Origin: Capsulimonadaceae bacterium
GTDB lineage: Bacteria > Armatimonadota > Armatimonadia > Armatimonadales > Capsulimonadaceae
Length of the DNA stretch: 64,000 bases
Assembly (NCBI GenBank): GCA_965215505.1
Contig: OZ244065.1
Coordinates: 1,632,001-1,696,000 of the forward strand
Direction of reading: 5' to 3'
The notes beneath the pieces were generated by a model. That model ran no database searches and was not told the DNA's origin. It saw only the letters and a program-made list of their open reading frames with translations. Of this stretch, positions 3,577 to 56,834 are shown one piece after another. Position 1 is the first letter of the stretch. The number at the start of each line of letters is the position of its first letter. Made by a program: the position numbers and the translations under genes.

Positions 3577-4475
3577 CCCAATCCTTTTGCCAGCCCGAAG
3601 AGGGCGGTGAATCCGAGAACGAGCGTGATCAGCCCGCTCCAATCGTGAAAGACGTGGGCGGCGTTTGAGCCGATGCACTCCCCGACCACCCCGATCAGCG
3701 CGATCCGCACACTATTGACCAGAAGACTGAGCGGCAGGCTGAACGCGAACAGTCCCAGACGCCGGGCCGGTTTGCCGTCCACCAGATAGGCAAAGGCCGC
3801 GCTGAAGGTCAGCAGGGCCAGCAGCAGCTTGAACCCGGAGCAGGGTACGTCCACGAACAGCGAGTAGTCTTCCATCGTGATGACGTTGCCGACCAGGGTC
3901 GTGCCGAACGTCATCAAGTGCAGCAGGTGGTTTGCCAGAATCGTGGACAGCATCTGCACATGCAGGGTCGAGTCGTTCAGGACGGGTCCCGGCAGCGGGG
4001 CCATCAGCCACAGGAACAGGAGCGGGATGGCCGCCGCCCGCACGAAGCGCGTGCCCAGGGCCAGCCAGACCCCCGAACACACAGTCAGCAGCAGCCCCGT
4101 CGATTCCATCGCCTCGGCCTGCGTCTTGATGGCGAACACGAGCAGGGCCAGGGCGGGCAGGAGCAGGGCCAGGGCACCCAGCGCGGGCGCTTTGGGCACG
4201 GCCCGCAGGGCGTCGCGCCGGTGCCAGAGCATCAGGGCGACGATCAGCGGGATGAGCGGCGCGTGGCCGTAGTACGACTCGGGCTTGGTGTATTCAAAGC
4301 CCCAGAAGCGCAGGACGGGCCAGGCGAGGACGGTCAGCAGGGCGGCGGCGGCGAGGAACGGCGTGAGGGTCGGCCAGTCCTGACGACCCAGGAGGGCCGG
4401 CAGACCGCGCGGCGACTTCTCAGGCTCCGCGTGTTCAGGCTCCGCGTGTTCAGGTTTCTGGGAGACGACTGCCAT
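3543..4475 (-). CDS. Exosortase (EpsH family)
   Basis: Multi-TM protein with YYGHAPLIP and catalytic-type VDVPCSG, NSVRI, FHDWSG; adjacent to a PEP-CTERM gene. Confidence 0.92.
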   Translation of the reverse strand: MAVVSQKPEHAEPEHAEPEKSPRGLPALLGRQDWPTLTPFLAAAALLTVLAWPVLRFWGFEYTKPESYYGHAPLIPLIVALMLWHRRDALRAVPKAPALGALALLLPALALLVFAIKTQAEAMESTGLLLTVCSGVWLALGTRFVRAAAIPLLFLWLMAPLPGPVLNDSTLHVQMLSTILANHLLHLMTFGTTLVGNVITMEDYSLFVDVPCSGFKLLLALLTFSAAFAYLVDGKPARRLGLFAFSLPLSLLVNSVRIALIGVVGECIGSNAAHVFHDWSGLITLVLGFTALFGLAKGLGCRTFAGWAIF

Positions 4476-50063: not shown

Positions 50064-50954
50064 ATGGCGGAAGAGCAGAAGTCAACATGGAAGACCAAGG
50101 TGGGTCTGGCCGAGATGCTCAAGGGCGGCGTCATCATGGACGTCGTGAACCCGGAGCAGGCGATCATCGCCGAGGAAGCCGGCGCGACGGCGGTGATGGC
50201 CTTGGAGCGCGTGCCCGCCGACATCCGGCGCGACGGCGGCGTGGCGCGGATGTCCGACCCGAAGATGATTAAGGGCATCATGGACGTCGTGACCATCCCG
50301 GTCATGGCGAAGGCCCGGATTGGGCACTACGTCGAGGCGCAGATATTGGAGGCCCTGGGCGTGGACTTCGTGGACGAGTCCGAGGTGCTGACGCCCGCCG
50401 ATGACGCCTTCCACATCTCAAAGCACGACTTCAAAGTCCCCTTCGTCTGCGGCTGCCGCGATCTGGGCGAGGCCCTGCGGCGCATCGGCGAGGGCGCTTC
50501 CATGATTCGCACCAAGGGCGAGGCCGGCTCGGGCAACATCGTGGAGGCAGTCCGGCACATGCGGACCGTGCTGGGCGGCGTCCGCCGCATCCAGGCCATG
50601 CCGTTTGAAGAGCTGATGACCGAGGCCAAGAACCTGGGCGCTCCGTATGAGCTGGTCGTCGAGATCCACCGGACCGGCAAGCTGCCCGTGCCGAACTTCA
50701 GCGCGGGCGGCATCGCCACCCCCGCCGACGCGGCCCTGATGCGCCAGATGGGCGCGGAAGCGGTCTTTGTCGGGTCCGGCATCTTCAAATCCGGCGACCC
50801 CAAGCGGCGCGCACGGGCAATGGTGGACGCCTGCACCCACTACGACAACCCGATGATGCTGGCCGAAATCTCTAACGACATCGGCGAGCCGATGGTGGGC
50901 ATCAACTTGAACTTCGTGCCCAAGGAAGAGATGATGGCGAATCGCGGCTGGTAG
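50064..50954 (+). CDS. pdxS: PLP synthase subunit
   Basis: [47 protein letters not shown]; alternative GTG start at 50055. Confidence 0.97.
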
Positions 50955-50965
50955 CACAGGCCGGC

Positions 50966-51006
50966 AAAGAAAGAGCGGCTGCCCCCTTGGGGCAGCCGCT
51001 CTTTTG
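50966..51006. terminator. Bidirectional terminator between pdxS and ro60
   Basis: AAAGAGCGGCTGCCCC-CTT-GGGGCAGCCGCTCTTTT. Confidence 0.88.
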
Positions 51007-51026
51007 TCGTGTCGGGCCTTGCCATG

Positions 51027-52628
51027 TCAGGCGACCGCGAAGTCGCTCATGACGTTCGGCGTTGCGGTCGAGAACCCGACCACGTCCATCATGCCCGCGT
51101 CGTCGGGGTCGGCGATGGTGAATTTATTGGACACCATGCCGCAGACGATCAGCTTGGCCGGGATGCCCATGCGCTCCCGGTACAACCGCAGGGCCTGGAC
51201 CGGCTGGATGTTCCCCGCCCACGTCTCCGAGTCGGTGTAGACGACGAACACGTCCGCTTCGACCTTGTTCTTCAGCGCCCAGACCATCGGCAGGGCGCAG
51301 TCGGTCCCGGCGAAGGGCAGACCGCTGACCGTCTTCAGCACGTCGTCGAGCCGCTGGCGCGGGCTGATATTCAGCGGCATGAACGTCGTCGAGAACGCCA
51401 TGAACCGGTGACGCGCCTCGGTCGCCGCCGTGATCAGGGCCATCGCCGCGCTGGCGACGCGCGGCGTCAGGCCCGGAACGCCCGCGATCTGACCGCCCTC
51501 CATCGAGCCGGACACGTCCAGGGCGAGCAGCCACCGCTGGCCGGTCGGCGTGACGTTGCCGAACGAGGCGTAGAACGCCGCGTCCAGGGCGTCCACGATG
51601 GCGGGGACCGGCGTCCAGCTATTCCCACCGCGCTCGCCATGCCCCTGGGCATAGGTCTTCAGGGCAGACAGGACCTGAATCGGATGGACCCGCGCCTTCC
51701 GCAGACGCGCCCCGTCGGTGATCTGCGCGGCCACCTTCTGAGTCTCCGGCCCCATCGAAGTGAGCAGGCCCACCCGCGTCAGGGTCGCCAGGTTGCGGAT
51801 GAGCGCCGTCATCGGCATCTCCTCCAGCAAGGCCTCCCAGACGAACGGGTCGGTGAGCCACTGCGTCGGGACCGCCTCACGCGGCAGCCGGTACTCGCGA
51901 ACGAGTGCGGCGACCTGCGCCGCCGTCTCTGCCGTTTTGACCCGCTCCGATGCCCAGACCAGCCGCAGGGCCGGGTCCGGGTGGGGCATCTCGCCGACCG
52001 ACTCCCACCCCTGGGTCAGCCAGTGGTAGAGCGCGAAGTGCTGCTCCGTCGCGGGCTTCGGGTGCGAGAGCCGCAGCAGGTCGCGGTGGCTCCAGCCGTC
52101 CCGCTGCCCGTACTTGACCGCCTGGTAGGCCAGCCTGTCGGCGGGCATCTGGGCGTACCAGTTGCCGACCGCCTGCCGCAGCCCGCGGCCCCAGCCGCGC
52201 ATCCCGTCCACATACTGCGCGAAGTGGAACAGGTGCGTCCCGATCCGTGCCACGACCGGCAGGGCCGCCAGCGCCTTCCGGCGCGTGTCCTCGTCGCCGA
52301 GTGCAGCGCACATGGCGAGTGCGAACAGGGCGGGGTCGTTCTTCGGCGCGCGCCCGGCCTCGGACACGGCGACGATCTCGCGTACGACGCGCGGGCCGTC
52401 CGCGCCGATGCACCGCTTGACCGCCTCGGCGTTCTCCAGCGTCAGGGTCGTCTCGCCCGCGTAGAACGAGCCGCCCTCGGTTCCCAGCGCGAGGAATCGT
52501 GCCAGCCGCGTCCAGTCGTCCACGGCGAAGGTGAACCCGCCCGCGCTGTTCGCGACCTGGGCCGAGCCGGGGATGGGCCGGCTCTGCGGCGTCACTTTCT
52601 TGTTAAAAACCGTCTTCAAGTACGTCAT
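51027..52628 (-). CDS. rsr: Ro60/Rsr TROVE-vWA RNA-binding protein
   Basis: NSAGGF, RFLALGTEGGSFY, GWGRGLR, KYGQRDGWSHRDLLRLSHP, ALIRNL, vWA DVSGSM, GTDCALP, YTDSET; ATG at 52628 after AAAGGAG. Confidence 0.97.
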   Translation of the reverse strand: MTYLKTVFNKKVTPQSRPIPGSAQVANSAGGFTFAVDDWTRLARFLALGTEGGSFYAGETTLTLENAEAVKRCIGADGPRVVREIVAVSEAGRAPKNDPALFALAMCAALGDEDTRRKALAALPVVARIGTHLFHFAQYVDGMRGWGRGLRQAVGNWYAQMPADRLAYQAVKYGQRDGWSHRDLLRLSHPKPATEQHFALYHWLTQGWESVGEMPHPDPALRLVWASERVKTAETAAQVAALVREYRLPREAVPTQWLTDPFVWEALLEEMPMTALIRNLATLTRVGLLTSMGPETQKVAAQITDGARLRKARVHPIQVLSALKTYAQGHGERGGNSWTPVPAIVDALDAAFYASFGNVTPTGQRWLLALDVSGSMEGGQIAGVPGLTPRVASAAMALITAATEARHRFMAFSTTFMPLNISPRQRLDDVLKTVSGLPFAGTDCALPMVWALKNKVEADVFVVYTDSETWAGNIQPVQALRLYRERMGIPAKLIVCGMVSNKFTIADPDDAGMMDVVGFSTATPNVMSDFAVA

Positions 52629-52640
52629 CGTCTTTGTCTC

Positions 52641-52662
52641 CTTTCGGCCCCAGTGGGGCAAG
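52641..52662 (-). promoter_or_regulatory. Minimal Ro60-binding-type hairpin abutting the ro60 Shine-Dalgarno
   Basis: CTTGCCCC-ACT-GGGGCCGAAAG: the same bulged-C helix as the Y RNAs, running into AAAGGAG. Confidence 0.6.
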
Positions 52663-52665
52663 TGC

Positions 52666-52744
52666 CGGACAGGCAAGGGGTGCGCCTGGGTGTTGGTTTT
52701 CTGGTTTCAAGAAGAGTGTTAACCCAAACACTTCGGCCCGTCCG
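52666..52744 (-). ncRNA. Y RNA E1 (canonical topology)
   Basis: 5' CGGACGGGCCGAAGTGTTTGGGTTAA pairs with 3' CCCAGGCGC...TTGCCTGTCCG, leaving a bulged C. Confidence 0.85.
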
Positions 52745-52762
52745 TGTCACAGTGTCACGATC

Positions 52763-52909
52763 TGAAGAGCGGCAGGACTTGCACCTGCACTGCCTCTCGG
52801 CAACGCCGTCCCTGATAACCGTTATCCTGCGGCCTGCAAGCGGGCAAAGGTCGGTAACGGGAATGCCTTGCGGCCACGACGCGCGTCTGCTGATTTCGCC
52901 ACGCTCTCC
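52763..52909 (-). ncRNA. tRNA-like/Y hybrid E2 (tRNA-Leu-like, long variable arm)
   Basis: GGAGAGCG/CGCTCTTC acceptor, TGGCGAAATCAGCAGACGC D arm, TGCCGAGAGGCA variable arm, GCAGG-TGCAAGT-CCTGC T arm; internal TTTGCCCGC-TT-GCAGGCCGCAGGATAACGGTTATC. Confidence 0.8.
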
Positions 52910-52915
52910 ATCGTT

Positions 52916-52937
52916 GGTTCAGGCCATGGCCTGAACC
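52916..52937. repeat. Perfect 22-bp palindrome, possibly a collapsed Y-RNA stem
   Basis: GGTTCAGGCCATGGCCTGAACC resembles the ends of E6 and E8. Confidence 0.6.
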
Positions 52938-52957
52938 GGCTCCGTCGTCAGTATGCA

Positions 52958-53095
52958 TGAAGAGCGGCAGGAGTCGAACCTGCTGCCTCCGGGGTGAAAG
53001 ATAACCGTTTTCCTACGGCCCGCATCGCAGGCAAGTGGCGGAAACGGGAACCGCCTTGCGGCGACCCGGTGAGCTGCCGTTGCTCCACACTCTTC
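52958..53095 (-). ncRNA. tRNA-like/Y hybrid E3
   Basis: GAAGAGTG/CGCTCTTC acceptor, GAGC-AACGGCA-GCTC D arm, CCGGG/CCCGG stem, GCAGG-TTCGACT-CCTGC T arm; internal TTGCCTGC-GAT-GCGGGCCGTAGGAAAACGGTTATC. Confidence 0.83.
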
Positions 53096-53100
53096 ATCGC

Positions 53101-53218
53101 TGGCTCAGGCAAGGTGATTGCCTACGGGTGTCACCCCGTACTGGAGTTCATCGCTCCAGCGCTTTGCTCTTGGTCAGGGTGCGATCACTCGATAACCCGT
53201 ATGCTGCGGCCCGAGCCA
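53101..53218 (-). ncRNA. Y RNA E4 (canonical topology)
   Basis: TGGCTCGGGCCGCAGCATACGGGTTATC ... CCCGTAGGC...TTGCCTGAGCCA. Confidence 0.85.
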
Positions 53219-53235
53219 TTCTTATCCAGTTGTCA

Positions 53236-53344
53236 TGGAGGCGATCGGAGTCGAACCGATGACCGTGTGGTAACCATCTTCCAGCGGCCCGCGAAGCAGG
53301 CAAAAGGCGGCGATGGGTTGCTCTACCTACTGAGCTACGCCCCC
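53236..53344 (-). ncRNA. tRNA-like/Y hybrid E5 (Ala-like acceptor)
   Basis: GGGGGCG/CGCCTCC-A with G3.U70, GCTC-AGTAGGTA-GAGC D arm, ATCGG-TTCGACT-CCGAT T arm; internal TTTGCCTGC-TTC-GCGGGCCGCTGGAAGATGGTTAC. Confidence 0.85.
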
Positions 53345-53350
53345 GCCTGT

Positions 53351-53416
53351 GGTTCAGGCAAATGCCGCGCCTGGGGGTAATCTTAACAGGATAACCCAGG
53401 CGCTTCGGCCCGAACC
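53351..53416 (-). ncRNA. Y RNA E6 (minimal, canonical topology)
   Basis: GGTTCGGGCCGAAGCGCCTGGGTTATC ... CCCAGGCGCGGCATTTGCCTGAACC. Confidence 0.87.
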
Positions 53417-53442
53417 GGTGTCTCGCTCTTCGTATCCAGTTG

Positions 53443-53567
53443 TGGTGGAGAGCGGGAGGATTCGAACCCCCGACCCCGTCAGTGATAATGATAACCGTCA
53501 TCCAGCGGCCCGCGGGGCAGACAAAGGGCGGAGACGGATCGTGCTCTGCCACTGAGCTACGCTCCCC
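53443..53567 (-). ncRNA. tRNA-like/Y hybrid E7 (Ala-like, encoded CCA)
   Basis: GGGGAGCG/CGCTCTCC-ACCA, GCTC-AGTGGCA-GAGC D arm, GGGGG-TTCGAAT-CCTCC T arm; internal TTTGTCTGC-CCC-GCGGGCCGCTGGATGACGGTTATC. Confidence 0.85.
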
Positions 53568-53630
53568 GTATTCGGCGATCCGCTATTCAGTTATGACCGG
53601 CCCCGCCTGGCAGCAGGGCCGGAAAAGGAC

Positions 53631-53720
53631 GTTCAGGCAAAAGGCGTCCTGGGATCATCCCGTTGCCGGGATTTGGATTCGAACCAGTGTGCCAGATAAC
53701 CCAGGGACTACGGCCCGAAC
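53631..53720 (-). ncRNA. Y RNA E8 (canonical topology with an internal T-loop, YrlA-like)
   Basis: GTTCGGGCCGTAGTCCCTGGGTTATC ... TGG-TTCGAAT-CCA ... CCCAGGAC...TTGCCTGAAC. Confidence 0.85.
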
Positions 53721-53744
53721 TTCAATCTTCGTCGTGGTCTTCGC

Positions 53745-54077
53745 CTAGAACCGGAAGGCCGCGAGGCAGCCCGCGAGGCAGGCCAGAAGCAGCAGGAGCA
53801 TGAGCGCGTCGGAAACGCGCGACAGGCCCGCGTTGTGGCCCTTGCCATCCCGCTTCGGCTCCGGCGCGGGCGGCGGGGCGAACTCCAGGATGATCAGGTT
53901 GCCGCGCCGCTCGATCACCCGTCCCACGCTCCTGCCGGGGGGCTTCGGGTTACGCTCCGGGGGATGGCCCGTGCGCTCCGCGAAATAGTGGACCAGACAC
54001 AGCGGCGCAGCTGTGTCGCCCCCGCTGTCCCCCACCCCCTGCATGTCTTCGTCGTACTCCGTGATGTCGTATGTCAC
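53745..54077 (-). CDS. Small hypothetical protein with C-terminal TM segment
   Basis: GAAGGAG RBS before GTG; C-terminal LMLLLLLACLAGCLAAF. Confidence 0.6.
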   Translation of the reverse strand: MTYDITEYDEDMQGVGDSGGDTAAPLCLVHYFAERTGHPPERNPKPPGRSVGRVIERRGNLIILEFAPPPAPEPKRDGKGHNAGLSRVSDALMLLLLLACLAGCLAAFRF

Positions 54078-54103
54078 TGGTTTCTCCTTCAGGAAAAGCG
54101 TTC

Positions 54104-54160
54104 AAAGAAAAAGACGCCCACCGCTCGGCTTGTGGGCCTTTGCGGTGGGCGTCTCTTTCT
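54104..54160 (-). terminator. Intrinsic terminator/attenuator in the leader of the Y-RNA-ro60 operon
   Basis: AGAAAGAGACGCCCACCGC...GCGGTGGGCGTCTTTTTCTTT. Confidence 0.8.
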
Positions 54161-54186
54161 CACGGGTACACGAGTGTGGTGAGTGT

Positions 54187-54333
54187 CTAAGGGACGAGTC
54201 CTCCGTCAAAGGAAGCAGTCGGGCGCTGGTACTGGGCGTTCACGAGCCACTGCCCACGACCGGCGGGGTCGGACTGGTGGCGCTCGCTGGTTAATGTGCT
54301 AACGTAAATCATGCTGGTCTGCTTCAGTGTCAT
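54187..54333 (-). CDS. Putative 48-aa leader peptide
   Basis: GAGG before ATG; MTLKQTSMIYVSTLTSERHQSDPAGRGQWLVNAQYQRPTASFDGGLVP*; lies between the promoter and the terminator. Confidence 0.5.
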   Translation of the reverse strand: MTLKQTSMIYVSTLTSERHQSDPAGRGQWLVNAQYQRPTASFDGGLVP

Positions 54334-54373
54334 TGTCCTCGGCTGCTCCTTTCACTAAAATCGGTTGGTGCGT

Positions 54374-54403
54374 ATGATACCCATACGTTCAGCGGCTTGT
54401 CAA
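54374..54403 (-). promoter_or_regulatory. Sigma70-type promoter of the leader/Y-RNA/ro60 unit
   Basis: TTGACA-18 nt-TATCAT; inverted repeat CGTATG-N5-CATACG overlaps the -10. Confidence 0.68.
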
Positions 54404-54432
54404 GGGGTGGGGCGAAATAGTTTTGCGCGGCC

Positions 54433-55695
54433 TCACAGCTTCGTGCTGCTGTTGAGGAAGGACTGGGCGTAGATGCCGCCGCGGAGGGCATCACTGGCGG
54501 CCTTGGCGAGCGAGGCGGTCGTCTCGCCGGGGTGCAGGGCCACGTCCGCGGGGGTGATCGTCAGCAGCGGCTTGTCGGAGATCAGCACCTGGTCGCCGCT
54601 GGACTCGATTTGGTACATCTGCAAGCCGCCGTCCAGCAGCGTGTTGAAGCGGTCGGCGATGGCCTTGGCCCGGTTCAGGTCCGGGTCGGACAGGGTCGGC
54701 AGGGTGTGGTTGACGAACACGATGTCCTCCCCGCCGCCCGGCGCGGGGTGGACGAGGGCGTGGGGGGCGTCGGTCGCCTCGCGGACGGCGTGTGTGGTGA
54801 TGGGGACGTTCATGGCATCGAGTTCCGCGCGGATCATCCCGACGCGCTCGGTCGTGTAAGGGTGGTCCATTAGGATGCCCAGCTCGACCTTGGGGCTGCG
54901 GGCCTCGATGTCGGCCAGCCGCTGCATGAACGTCATCATGGCGACGGGATTGTAACCCGCCTTCTGCAAGAGGAGGGTGCCGCCATGGTCGGCGTCCGCC
55001 TCGGCGGCCTGGCTGTATTTGGTGTTGAGGATGCCCATCTGCGCGTACTGCGCGCCCGCCGCGAGGTTCGCGATGTCGGTCGTGTTGACGTGGGCAACGA
55101 TTGCGGCCAGCAGACCCGCGATCATCTCGGTGTTCATCTTGGACTGCTCGTGCGACAGCGACTGGATGTGGTGGTGGGCGGCGTGGGTGATCTCGTGGGC
55201 CAGGACGCCGGCCAGCTCGTCGTCGGTGCGGACGAACTTCAGCAAGCCGGAGTTGACGTAGACGTAGCCGCCCGGCAGCGAAAAGGCGTTGACGTCCTTC
55301 TCGTCAATGACGAAGAAGTGCCAGGTGAAGGGGAAGGTCCTGTCGTTGCCGTAGTCGGCGTGATAGGTCGTCGTGTTGGCTATGGCGGCGAGCTTCTGGC
55401 CGATGGCGTTGACTCGGTCCAGAACGGCCTTGTCCTTGACCATCTTGACGGCCTTGTTGACCTGTGCGGAGGCGTCCGCACCCTGCTTTGCCTCGTCGGC
55501 GGCCTGGGCCTTGTCGCGGGCGGACAGAGGCGCGGGCGTCGCCATGGAGAGCGCGCCCGTCGGGGGGAGGCCGGCGGCACGGGCGGACACCCCCCACCCC
55601 AGGCAGGCCAGGGTCGTAAACAGCAGAGGCTTGATGTTCGCGGGGGGCTTGATGTTCGCGGGGGGCTTGATGTTCGCGGGGGGCTTGATGTTCAT
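54433..55695 (-). CDS. M48-family metallopeptidase (BepA-like)
   Basis: NAFSLPGG, ELAGVLAHEITH, EADAD, DHP. Confidence 0.9.
   Translation of the reverse strand: MNIKPPANIKPPANIKPPANIKPLLFTTLACLGWGVSARAAGLPPTGALSMATPAPLSARDKAQAADEAKQGADASAQVNKAVKMVKDKAVLDRVNAIGQKLAAIANTTTYHADYGNDRTFPFTWHFFVIDEKDVNAFSLPGGYVYVNSGLLKFVRTDDELAGVLAHEITHAAHHHIQSLSHEQSKMNTEMIAGLLAAIVAHVNTTDIANLAAGAQYAQMGILNTKYSQAAEADADHGGTLLLQKAGYNPVAMMTFMQRLADIEARSPKVELGILMDHPYTTERVGMIRAELDAMNVPITTHAVREATDAPHALVHPAPGGGEDIVFVNHTLPTLSDPDLNRAKAIADRFNTLLDGGLQMYQIESSGDQVLISDKPLLTITPADVALHPGETTASLAKAASDALRGGIYAQSFLNSSTKL
55628..55693. repeat. 18-bp tandem repeat (about 3.7 copies) encoding NIKPPA
   Basis: GGCTTGATGTTCGCGGGG repeated at the N-terminus of the M48 gene. 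Confidence 0.9.
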
Positions 55696-55751
55696 GGCAT
55701 GTTTTCCAGATCGCCGACGCATATGCCGGAAGGATATGATATAATGGCGCT

Positions 55752-56834
55752 ATGACCCGTATGTACGTTCTGACGGTTCTTTTCCTGCTCGCGCTCCTGC
55801 ATCCCGTCCGGGCGGACGACACGCTGCCCGCCCTGCTTGGGCAGGCACAGAAGGCCAAGGATGCGGGACAGGTGGAGGAGGCATTGGGCGCGCTGGTCAC
55901 GGCCCGCCGGTCCTATCCGACCTCGAACGAGGCGGCGCGGCGGCTGGAGACGCTGGTCGGAGCGGGCCTGCCGCCGCACCTTCGGAGCGACTGGCTCGGC
56001 GCTGTGCCGGTAGACGCCACCTCTTTGCCTTACGACCTCGGCACCCTTATCGTTCCCAAAACCTACCTGCCGACACACGCCGAGGAGCCTCAGCACCACT
56101 GGTCGTTCGCTAAGGCGGCCTACGTCTACTCTGCGGACGGTCAATCGCTCCGCCTGTTCTGCGCGGTGCATTACCCCACCGACGCGGACGCCGCATTGGC
56201 GGCGCGCATCGCCCGCCTGCTCGCGCTGGCGCACCAGACCTTGACGCGCAGGACCGGATCGGAGGCCGCCAACGGGGCCGTCCCATTCGACGTCTGGCTC
56301 TGCACCGGGGGGCAGAGCGGCGGCGAGCAGTGGCGCGACAACCTGTACCTGTACGACATCGAGACGCCCCGCTCGTCCATCGAGTGGCTGCGCGAGACGG
56401 TCCACGAGTACGCCCACCTCGCCCTGCCCGCCATCGGCGGCTACGAGGCACCCGAGTATTGGGCCAACGGCTACCTCGGCGAGCGGCTCCTGGTGCGCTG
56501 GATGGAGCGCGGACCGGACGGGCCGGCCCATGTCGAGGCGCTGTGGGGCGACTTCAGCGGTGCCCCCAACTTCGACCGGCTCCTGATCGCCCCCCCGCTG
56601 GCGCTCTACAGGAAGATCGGCCCAAGCCCCATCTGGCTGGCGCGCAAGGACGAGGCTGGGATGCGCTATCTGATCGGGCAGGCCTTGACTTTTGACGACA
56701 AGTATGGCGCGTCGCGTCTAGGGGACGCCTTCCGACGGCTGCCCCGCTTCCGCGAGGCGACCGCCAAAGACTTCGCCGCCGCGCTGGCCGAGTCGCTCGC
56801 GGCGGACCCTGCCCACGCCCAGGGCACCCCATGA
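55752..56834 (+). CDS. Secreted hypothetical protein with HExxH motif
   Basis: Signal peptide; ETVHEYAH...EYWANG; overlaps the ispE start. Confidence 0.7.
   Translation: MTRMYVLTVLFLLALLHPVRADDTLPALLGQAQKAKDAGQVEEALGALVTARRSYPTSNEAARRLETLVGAGLPPHLRSDWLGAVPVDATSLPYDLGTLIVPKTYLPTHAEEPQHHWSFAKAAYVYSADGQSLRLFCAVHYPTDADAALAARIARLLALAHQTLTRRTGSEAANGAVPFDVWLCTGGQSGGEQWRDNLYLYDIETPRSSIEWLRETVHEYAHLALPAIGGYEAPEYWANGYLGERLLVRWMERGPDGPAHVEALWGDFSGAPNFDRLLIAPPLALYRKIGPSPIWLARKDEAGMRYLIGQALTFDDKYGASRLGDAFRRLPRFREATAKDFAAALAESLAADPAHAQGTP

Follow-up and report, generated by a model that had tools for sequence, protein, structure and literature searches.

Eight predicted Y RNA units in two alternating topologies, one of them tRNA-shaped, upstream of a bacterial Ro60 gene

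Introduction

With what RNAs would a bacterial Ro60 protein be supplied by a locus in which the sequence directly upstream of its gene carries eight copies of one and the same motif? This question is raised by a stretch of 64,000 nucleotides (nt) of Capsulimonadaceae bacterium (GCA_965215505.1, contig OZ244065.1, positions 1,632,001-1,696,000, forward strand), which is referred to as the window throughout and is part of a complete, single-contig genome of 6.18 Mb. The motif copies precede ro60 (rsr) on the minus strand, and the locus is probably an operon-like row of eight Y RNA genes feeding one Ro60, in which the units A1-A4 are of the classical kind and the units B1-B4 are tRNA-shaped. Y RNAs tether Ro60 to partners, PNPase among them. 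For animal and Deinococcus Y RNAs, the element recognized by Ro60 is described as a bulged-C helix (Chen et al. 2014, PMC4201824; PMC12135203). Y RNAs as such, their mimicry of tRNA, and their occurrence in multi-copy rows are already known; the interest of the present locus lies in the field of Ro60 and tRNA mimicry, where it bears on the role and the origin of the tRNA-like part of bacterial Y RNAs.

The Docking Helix Common to Eight Units

The motif GGCCG-N9-GGTTA occurs eight times in the window, always on the minus strand and between positions 52720 and 53715. In dinucleotide shuffles of the window, the mean was 0.11 and the maximum 1, with none of 100 shuffles reaching eight; the eight minus-strand units reported by the first-pass annotation were recovered exactly. 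Across the 6.18-Mb genome, 8 of 12 matches are located inside the array. Every unit also contains the partner strand TTG(C/T)C(C/T)G, as TTGCCTG in six cases and as TTGTCTG and TTGCCCG in one case each. The docking helix of all eight units is composed of the strands GGGCCG and UUGCCUG with a single unpaired C, followed by a variable second stem. Both strands are invariant or nearly so, the helix is paired to 97-99%, and the C is unpaired in all units, in agreement with the bulged-C helix proposed earlier. The earlier claim that the variable N9 segment pairs with a co-varying partner also held, since the three example pairings are present, namely, GCGCCTGGG/CCCAGGCGC in unit A2, GGAAAACGG/CCGTTTCC in unit B3, and, with one bulged U, GGATGACGG/CCGTCTCC in unit B1, and since both the handle and the variable stem are backed by covariation. 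The spacing in GG(U/G)CCG-N9-GGUUAUC equals that of the nematode stem-bulge RNA consensus (Rfam RF01656, GGUCCG-N9-GGUUAUC).

Classical and tRNA-Shaped Units

The units belong to two types, for which separate covariance models were built, R1 from 14 short type A hairpins and R2 from 30 type B hairpins. The partner strand lies 28-78 nt downstream of the GGGCCG strand in type A and 5-6 nt upstream of it in type B. In the direction of transcription, the array has the order A1-B1-A2-B2-A3-B3-H-B4-A4, as follows (lengths of acceptor stems in base pairs, bp).

A1, 53631..53720, minus strand: type A; R1 45.7 bits, RF01656 18.2 bits, fold z -1.68
B1, 53443..53567, minus strand: tRNA-shaped, 8-bp acceptor, A plus encoded CCA; Rfam tRNA 38.8 bits, R2 63.6 bits
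A2, 53351..53416, minus strand: short type A hairpin, YrlB-like; R1 86.8 bits, RF01656 32.3 bits, fold z -4.26
B2, 53236..53344, minus strand: tRNA-shaped, 7-bp acceptor with G3:U70, discriminator A, no CCA; Rfam tRNA 44.5 bits, R2 63.3 bits
A3, 53102..53217, minus strand: type A, long branched interior; R1 40.4 bits, RF01656 28.2 bits, fold z -2.74
B3, 52958..53095, minus strand: tRNA-shaped, 8-bp acceptor, discriminator A, no CCA; R2 67.6 bits
H, 52916..52937, minus strand: bare 22-nt palindromic hairpin; R1 20.4 bits with E 0.063, fold z -4.33
B4, 52763..52909, minus strand: tRNA-shaped, B3 family, plus an additional variable arm capped by GAGA; R2 67.6 bits, family alignment
A4, 52667..52743, minus strand: type A, ending 38 nt before the ro60 start codon; R1 49.5 bits, RF01656 30 bits

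With H counted as A, the alternation of the two types is strict. Between an A unit and the B unit after it there are 6 nt in three of the four cases (A2-B2, A3-B3, and H-B4) and 63 nt in the case of A1 and B1; from B to the next A, the distance is 18-26 nt. The hairpin H has the appearance of a type A outer stem lacking the interior and stands 6 nt before B4, just as A2 and A3 stand before B2 and B3. It may be the remnant of a type A unit which has lost its interior or, alternatively, a minimal processing or stability hairpin.

In type A, GGGCCG is located near the 5′ end and UUGCCUG near the 3′ end, and it is the RNA ends that form the docking helix. The interiors vary, from the short hairpin of A2 to the branched interior of A3; that of A1 contains a T-arm-like hairpin (loop UUCGAAU) together with a second hairpin.

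In type B, the partner strand comes first and is followed by a loop of about 3-6 nt and by GGGCCG-N9-GGUUAUC, by which arrangement the handle becomes a closed hairpin. The order of elements is acceptor 5′ strand, UA or UG, D arm, handle, variable region, T arm, acceptor 3′ strand, and an unpaired A. The D stem has 4 bp with a GG-containing loop in B1-B3, and the T stem has 5 bp with a loop of the UUCGAAU type, which in B4 reads UGCAAGU. The closed docking hairpin replaces the anticodon loop, and the acceptor end is free. In B3 and B4, an anticodon-type stem of 5-6 bp bears a GCAA-capped hairpin beside the handle; in B3 this stem has 5 bp and carries both the GCAA-capped and the closed Ro60 hairpin. 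Of the eight RNA adaptors with one handle and different effector domains that had been proposed earlier, the shared handle has stood up to analysis, whereas eight arbitrary domains have given way to two alternating types.

At gathering thresholds, the Rfam search of the array returned two tRNA matches only, B2 and B1 (cut-off of RF00005, 29 bits). B3 and B4 are below this cut-off, and B3 reaches 18.3 bits on tRNA-Sec; ARAGORN called no tRNA gene in the window. The Rfam alignment of B2 has a 48-nt insert in place of the 17-nt anticodon arm, and an anticodon stem with a 7-nt anticodon loop is absent. When 16 related loci were scanned, the tRNA cut-off was passed by 17 insert-bearing tRNA-like units of 105-142 nt, which make up 17 of the 19 tRNA rows. 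Standard annotation accordingly misses the RNAs of the array, with ARAGORN giving none, Rfam giving two as plain tRNA, and the rest being uncalled.

Covariation and Folding

For type A, an alignment of 63 rows fitted to R1 had 93.8% of its cells paired, as against 77.4% in shuffles (reached by 0 of 500) and 26-48% upon sliding. Changes on both sides were found in 17 of 20 pairs, including all nine of the variable upper stem. The 30 type B hairpins, aligned with MAFFT and not structure-fitted, were paired in 95.8% of cells versus 88.8% in shuffles (0/500) and 28-49% upon sliding; here, 7 of 14 pairs had changed on both sides, the two loop-closing pairs among them. Since loop-closing pairs would be meaningless in an open helix formed end to end, their compensation supports the closed-hairpin topology. 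For the type B body, the MAFFT alignment of 18 full-length units gave 97.8% paired cells versus 83.5% in shuffles (0/500) and 37-53% upon sliding, with 16 of 23 pairs compensated. Within the acceptor stem, all seven pairs were compensated and pairing was 100%.

Folding of single sequences reproduced the proposed fold for the A units and for B2 (minimum free energy (MFE) and centroid structures; cloverleaf plus hairpin). Duplex energies had a mean of -11.0 kcal/mol for cognate strands versus -8.1 kcal/mol for non-cognate ones; only 20 of 90 modules ranked in the best 5%. This comparison was blurred by the overlap between the candidate partner sets of neighbouring units, and column-wise pair counts were used in its stead. 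Taken together, sequence and comparison show eight conserved structured modules with one bulged-C helix, two topologies, and a tRNA-type body in four of the units.

Related Loci and Distribution in the Phylum

With the Ro60 protein as query, 33 loci were retrieved, the closest of which, at 76-91% identity, are from Armatimonadota (metagenome-assembled genomes of Capsulimonadaceae and Armatimonadales). The strict motif is present in 24 of the 33 loci in 1-9 copies, always on the Ro60 strand, and conservation of the module in homologous loci, which had been named as decisive for the proposal, is thereby given. Counting R1 and R2 matches of at least 30 bits, the window has 8 modules (4 A and 4 B) and the 12 closest loci have 2, 3, 5, 5, 5, 6, 6, 6, 7, 7, 7, and 9. 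In the other phyla, 1-3 modules were found where there were any, and at least one module is present in 18 of the 33 loci; two loci from other Armatimonadota families (L054 and L055) have at least 9 modules each at E≤0.01. With 2-9 modules (median 6) in its close relatives, an array of eight is ordinary for the clade, and the earlier view that eight is exceptional when compared with the "about two" of the studied loci had to be given up. A4 keeps its last position in the relatives, with orthologues at about 3865-3965 in loci in which ro60 starts at 4001.

Both architectures are confined to the Ro60 locus in the window's own genome, where at E≤0.001 R1 finds the four A units only (40-87 bits) and R2 the four B units only. 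In an evenly drawn sample of 151 Armatimonadota genomes (R2 threshold E≤0.001), 34 have a TROVE match, 20 an R2 match, and 18 both. In each of the 18 double-positive genomes, one hairpin or more lies upstream of TROVE, on its strand and at a distance of no more than about 1.5 kb; the remaining two R2-positive genomes have an R2 match without a TROVE match, one of them being in 580 contigs. As for off-locus matches, the sole cluster among the places listed consists of two R2 matches at G046:C1:2682138-2682337 (minus strand), about 1.7 Mb from the Ro60 gene of that genome.

Three genomes with TROVE and without R2 match (G124, G071, and G009) have sub-threshold matches to the YrlA model, at 39.5-50 bits, beside the Ro60 gene, and both topologies, type B and YrlA, seem to exist in Armatimonadota. 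In the 151 genomes, the Rfam YrlA model gave no genome with a match above its cut-off and 65 genomes with matches below it; because those listed include tRNA-tRNA junctions and Ro60-less genomes, no usable census of YrlA can be drawn from them. Outside the phylum, type B units with Rfam tRNA scores of 50-56 bits are found in an Entotheonella locus and a Gemmatimonadaceae locus, and in a Gemmatimonadota sample R2 matches were obtained in 3 of 151 genomes, the centre genome included.

Two further arrangements were observed in related loci. Directly upstream of the arrays of L054, an Armatimonadota genome (2346-2705, minus strand), and L026, a Gemmatimonadaceae genome (2256-2634, plus strand), there are 3-4 tRNA genes of ordinary length with Rfam tRNA scores of 30-63 bits. 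The actinomycete Ro60 loci L015 (3384-3537) and L032 (3381-3538), both on the plus strand, contain a composite which starts with a tRNA 5′ half (acceptor and D arm), and continues about 60 nt on with GGGCCG-N9-GGUUAUC; after this come another D-arm-like piece, a stem-loop, and a T arm, followed by an acceptor 3′ strand that has complementarity to the first 7 nt. This composite may be another topology.

Acceptor Ends of the tRNA-Shaped Units

Three orthologous type B families recur in the relatives.

B1 family, 9 sequences: acceptor 8 bp; third pair G:U in 8 of 9; A-CCA in 8 of 9
B2 family, 9 sequences: acceptor 7 bp, GGGGGCR/YGCCUCC; G3:U70 in 9 of 9; A in 8 of 9, no CCA
B3/B4 family, B3 and B4 of the window plus 8 related copies: acceptor 8 bp, GAAGAGYG/CGCUCUUC, near-invariant; third pair A:U; A, no CCA

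The G:U pair is kept in 17 of the 18 B1 and B2 orthologues, and pair 7:66 of B2 and the fourth pair of B1 change with compensation. The free acceptor end of B1 and B2 reads G:C, G:C, G:U, and then A; G1:C72, G2:C71, G3:U70, and A73 make up the alanine acceptor identity, an acceptor type that is used by tmRNA (transfer-messenger RNA) as well. An acceptor of this alanine type was not found in L012, L022, L026, and L054 and is confined to the close clade. Among the tRNAs of its own genome, B2 is closest to the tRNA-Ala genes (39 of 52 arm positions). A descent of B1 from tRNA-His was considered as well; with 37 of 52 matching positions, barely above other tRNAs, no derivation is claimed. The trailers that follow the B1 and B2 families share a CAACUG(G/A)AUA-like element directly after CCA or UGA (53425-53442 and 53219-53235, minus strand), which has the same position in L002-L013.

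B1 and B2 might be true substrates of the tRNA machinery rather than look-alikes and might in this way link Ro60 to translation or tRNA quality control, a proposition that we consider rather unlikely. On such a reading, the CCA end would be encoded in B1 and would need to be added in B2. If B1 or B2 were charged with alanine, or if alanyl-tRNA synthetase (AlaRS), the CCA-adding enzyme, or an elongation factor bound to them, a chargeable RNA would act as the tether of Ro60, and its charging state could report tRNA or ribosome stress to an RNA-decay ring. B1 and B2 would, if this were true, be living examples of an unpermuted ancestor that gave rise to YrlA within tandem arrays.

The Ro60 Gene and Its Surroundings

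Apart from the units, the following features of the locus are of relevance.

ro60 (rsr), 51027..52628, minus strand: 533 amino acids, ATG at 52628, Pfam TROVE and vWA_Ro60
110-amino-acid open reading frame (ORF; P0001), 53745..54077, minus strand: hydrophobic C-terminal tail, ending 24 nt before A1
Sigma-70-like promoter match, 54374..54403, minus strand: TTGACA-18-TATCAT, 11 of 12 hexamer positions, a consensus match only

The ro60 product consists of a TROVE ring (PF05731, 1e-46) and a C-terminal vWA domain (PF25045 vWA_Ro60, 1.7e-66), and it is matched over the full length by Xenopus Ro60 (4.8e-137), human RO60 (9.7e-136), and Deinococcus Rsr (3.5e-135), the PDB entries being 1yvp, 9nen, and 2nvo, all at about 1e-135. 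Proteins of the relatives align from residue 1 of the chosen start. The bit scores are near-equal, with 461 for Xenopus, 456 for human, and 455 for Deinococcus Rsr, and this equal closeness to animal Ro60 and to Deinococcus Rsr fits Y RNAs which keep both strands of the animal-type helix. Downstream of ro60 follows a convergent gene for a PdxS-type protein; genes for RtcB, RtcA, and PNPase were absent from the neighbour genes that were scanned.

The 110-amino-acid ORF, which lies between the promoter-like site and A1, has an acidic N-terminus and matches no Pfam family. In 11 related loci (L001-L010 and L013), tblastn placed it directly upstream of the array, and its homologues form 103 unnamed clusters. 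The ORF may add a protein to the ro60 operon as a third component. Between the promoter-like site and the end of ro60, no terminator-like site was found on the minus strand.

Interpretation of the Array

If the locus is a row of eight Y RNA genes feeding one Ro60, a single transcript would start at the promoter upstream of the small conserved ORF and run through the array into ro60. RNase P and the enzymes of tRNA 3′-end formation would cut at each tRNA-shaped unit and thereby also release the type A units, which would explain the fixed 6-nt spacing from A to B. Ro60 would then bind each of the RNAs at the shared helix, as is predicted for all eight, and the differing second modules, that is, the interiors of type A and the tRNA-shaped bodies, would give it different partners.

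Several points weigh against this reading. Discrete RNAs are predicted here from sequence and comparison; recognition of the bulged-C helix by Ro60 in all eight units is likewise predicted, on the grounds of motif conservation. The promoter assignment is a consensus match, one of three such sites in 50800-55900 versus 0.6 expected. In the covariation analyses, the sequences are related, the type A alignment was fitted to R1, and the structure of the type B body is that of RNAalifold, derived from the very alignment on which it was tested. For B1, B3, and B4, the proposed hairpin is not favoured by single-sequence folding; forcing the handle in B1-B4 costs 3.7-7.1 kcal/mol over the MFE, and the fold z is weak for B1 (-0.53) and B4 (-0.77). 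Under relaxed thresholds, A1-A4 match RF01656 at 18.2-32.3 bits and hence below the cut-off of 38, which two type A units of relatives pass with 40.4 and 38.4 bits. The Rfam comparison suggested by the first-pass annotation gave no match at E≤10 to YrlA (RF02553, gathering score 69 bits) in 52500-53900 or to the vertebrate Y_RNA (RF00019, cut-off 38 bits) in the window's genome, where the best YrlA match, 26.4 bits, is at a tRNA junction elsewhere. Finally, 16 of the 34 TROVE genomes are without R2 match, and type B is therefore not obligatory for Ro60.

An improbable alternative is that the row acts in cis as the leader of the ro60 mRNA, to the effect that Ro60 would regulate itself by binding a series of sites in its own 5′ untranslated region, without any release of discrete trans-acting RNAs. 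It would be in keeping with the location of all units on the ro60 strand, with the lack of a terminator-like site before ro60, and with the end of A4 38 nt before the start codon, a position kept in relatives. Four complete tRNA-shaped bodies with compensated acceptor stems, one with an encoded CCA, are, however, substrates for end-processing enzymes, and in M. smegmatis a single precursor is described as giving rise, by processing, to the Y RNAs upstream of rsr (Chen et al. 2014, PMC4201824). For A4, the leader and the Y RNA readings are not mutually exclusive.

More remote is the view by which the B units would be decaying or insertion-bearing tRNA genes, or mere tRNA-like cutting marks, leaving type A as the only Y RNAs; we hold it to be very improbable. 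B1 and B2 do pass the Rfam tRNA cut-off, B2 is most like the tRNA-Ala genes of the genome, and genuine tRNA genes are found upstream of the arrays in L026 and L054. Against these affinities stand the failure of ARAGORN to call any B unit a tRNA, the persistence of three orthologous B families across relatives, and the nature of the insert, which is non-random, with the invariant handle GGGCCG-N9-GGUUA plus UUGCCUG and with compensated pairs. This hairpin occurs at no other locus of the genome and adjoins the Ro60 gene in 18 of the 20 positive genomes of the phylum. The real RNAs could also be permuted YrlA molecules extending across unit borders, from GGGCCG as far as the UUGCCUG that comes next downstream, the acceptor stem being closed. 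This is suggested by Rfam YrlA matches across junctions of adjacent B units in relatives (29.8 and 36.3 bits); in the window, however, each B unit is followed by A or H and never by B, which makes such a cross-junction reading impossible there, and the YrlA model itself is silent in the array. As the acceptor strands within each unit are complementary, with all seven pairs compensated, and as the loop-closing pairs of the hairpin covary, a permuted product is extremely improbable, and the row of eight Y RNA genes is kept as the preferred reading.

Comparison with Known Systems

Metazoan Y RNAs and stem-bulge RNAs resemble the units of the array in keeping both bulged-C helix strands; as described by Chen et al. 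(2014, PMC4201824), the metazoan Y RNAs are without a tRNA module and differ in this from type B. The hairpin Y RNAs YrlB and Yrn2, as far as they are described, are like type A in being long hairpins with the handle at the base. In D. radiodurans, one polycistronic precursor comprises Yrn2, tRNA-Asp, and Yrn1 (Chen et al. 2014, PMC4201824), so that Y RNAs and tRNA-type units are present in one transcript, as is predicted for the array; the latter differs in having four hairpin units, which are paired with tRNA-shaped Y RNAs instead of a decoding tRNA.

The tRNA-like domain of tmRNA shares with type B the acceptor stem, the T arm, and the absence of an anticodon, and with B1 and B2 additionally the G:U third acceptor pair and the A before (C)CA. 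The Rfam tmRNA model aligns weakly to the ends of B1, at 21.7 bits, far below its cut-off of 47, and type B has neither an mRNA-like reading frame nor pseudoknots; the tmRNA of the genome itself lies elsewhere. The b7a-tRNA is a predicted tRNA-like non-coding RNA which is occasionally found beside rsr and strongly resembles authentic tRNA (Wang et al. 2018, bioRxiv 10.1101/312249). Judged by that description alone, which mentions no Ro60 handle, it is unlike type B, and it may nevertheless be identical with it.

An unpermuted, tRNA-ordered Y RNA whose handle, a closed hairpin, takes the anticodon position and whose acceptor is free, with CCA encoded in part of the copies, was not described in the literature searched, the coverage of which was incomplete, so that an earlier description is possible. 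Type B has this combination of a free tRNA-like acceptor end and a predicted Ro60 handle in the anticodon position here and in at least 17 other Armatimonadota genomes.

The closest relation is that to YrlA, in which the handle is formed from the two RNA ends and is combined with a conserved YUAY element and a tRNA-like domain; the acceptor stem is loop-closed and the T arm comes before the D arm, for which reason the molecule has been called a circularly permuted tRNA (Chen et al. 2014, PMC4201824; Wang et al. 2018, bioRxiv 10.1101/312249). According to these descriptions, YrlA of S. Typhimurium and M. smegmatis is Ro60-associated and encoded beside rsr on the same strand, as is the array, and it has in common with type B a handle, the YUAY-type element behind it (here GGUUAUC), and a tRNA-like module in which D and T arms are present. 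Type B is set apart by its open acceptor, by the D arm preceding the T arm, and by the closure of the handle into a hairpin. On its predicted fold, type B is a circular permutation of YrlA, with the same parts in unpermuted order.

B units adjoin one another in L054 and L055, and the YrlA matches obtained there, of 29.8 and 36.3 bits, start in the second half of one B hairpin and extend to the first half of the following one, which is what a tandem-duplication route to the permutation predicts. They fit the model, cited by Wang et al. (2018, bioRxiv 10.1101/312249), of an origin of YrlA from dimeric tRNA transcripts. A simple path between tRNA and YrlA is thereby offered, as type B units standing side by side and read across their junction would give YrlA.

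In M. smegmatis, the processing of a single precursor that includes rsr yields the Y RNAs encoded upstream of this gene, and RNase P cleaves YrlA within the acceptor loop, with CCA being added to the RNA; the interactors of the tRNA-like part of YrlA are given as not known (Chen et al. 2014, PMC4201824). With its open 7-bp acceptor stem, CCA end, and Ro60 handle, the RNase P-cleaved form resembles type B. As described, this mature form is a two-piece RNA derived from a permuted precursor; type B would be a one-piece RNA, with the CCA end encoded by the gene in the case of B1, on which the charging of a Y RNA, CCA addition, and RNase P processing would become directly testable.

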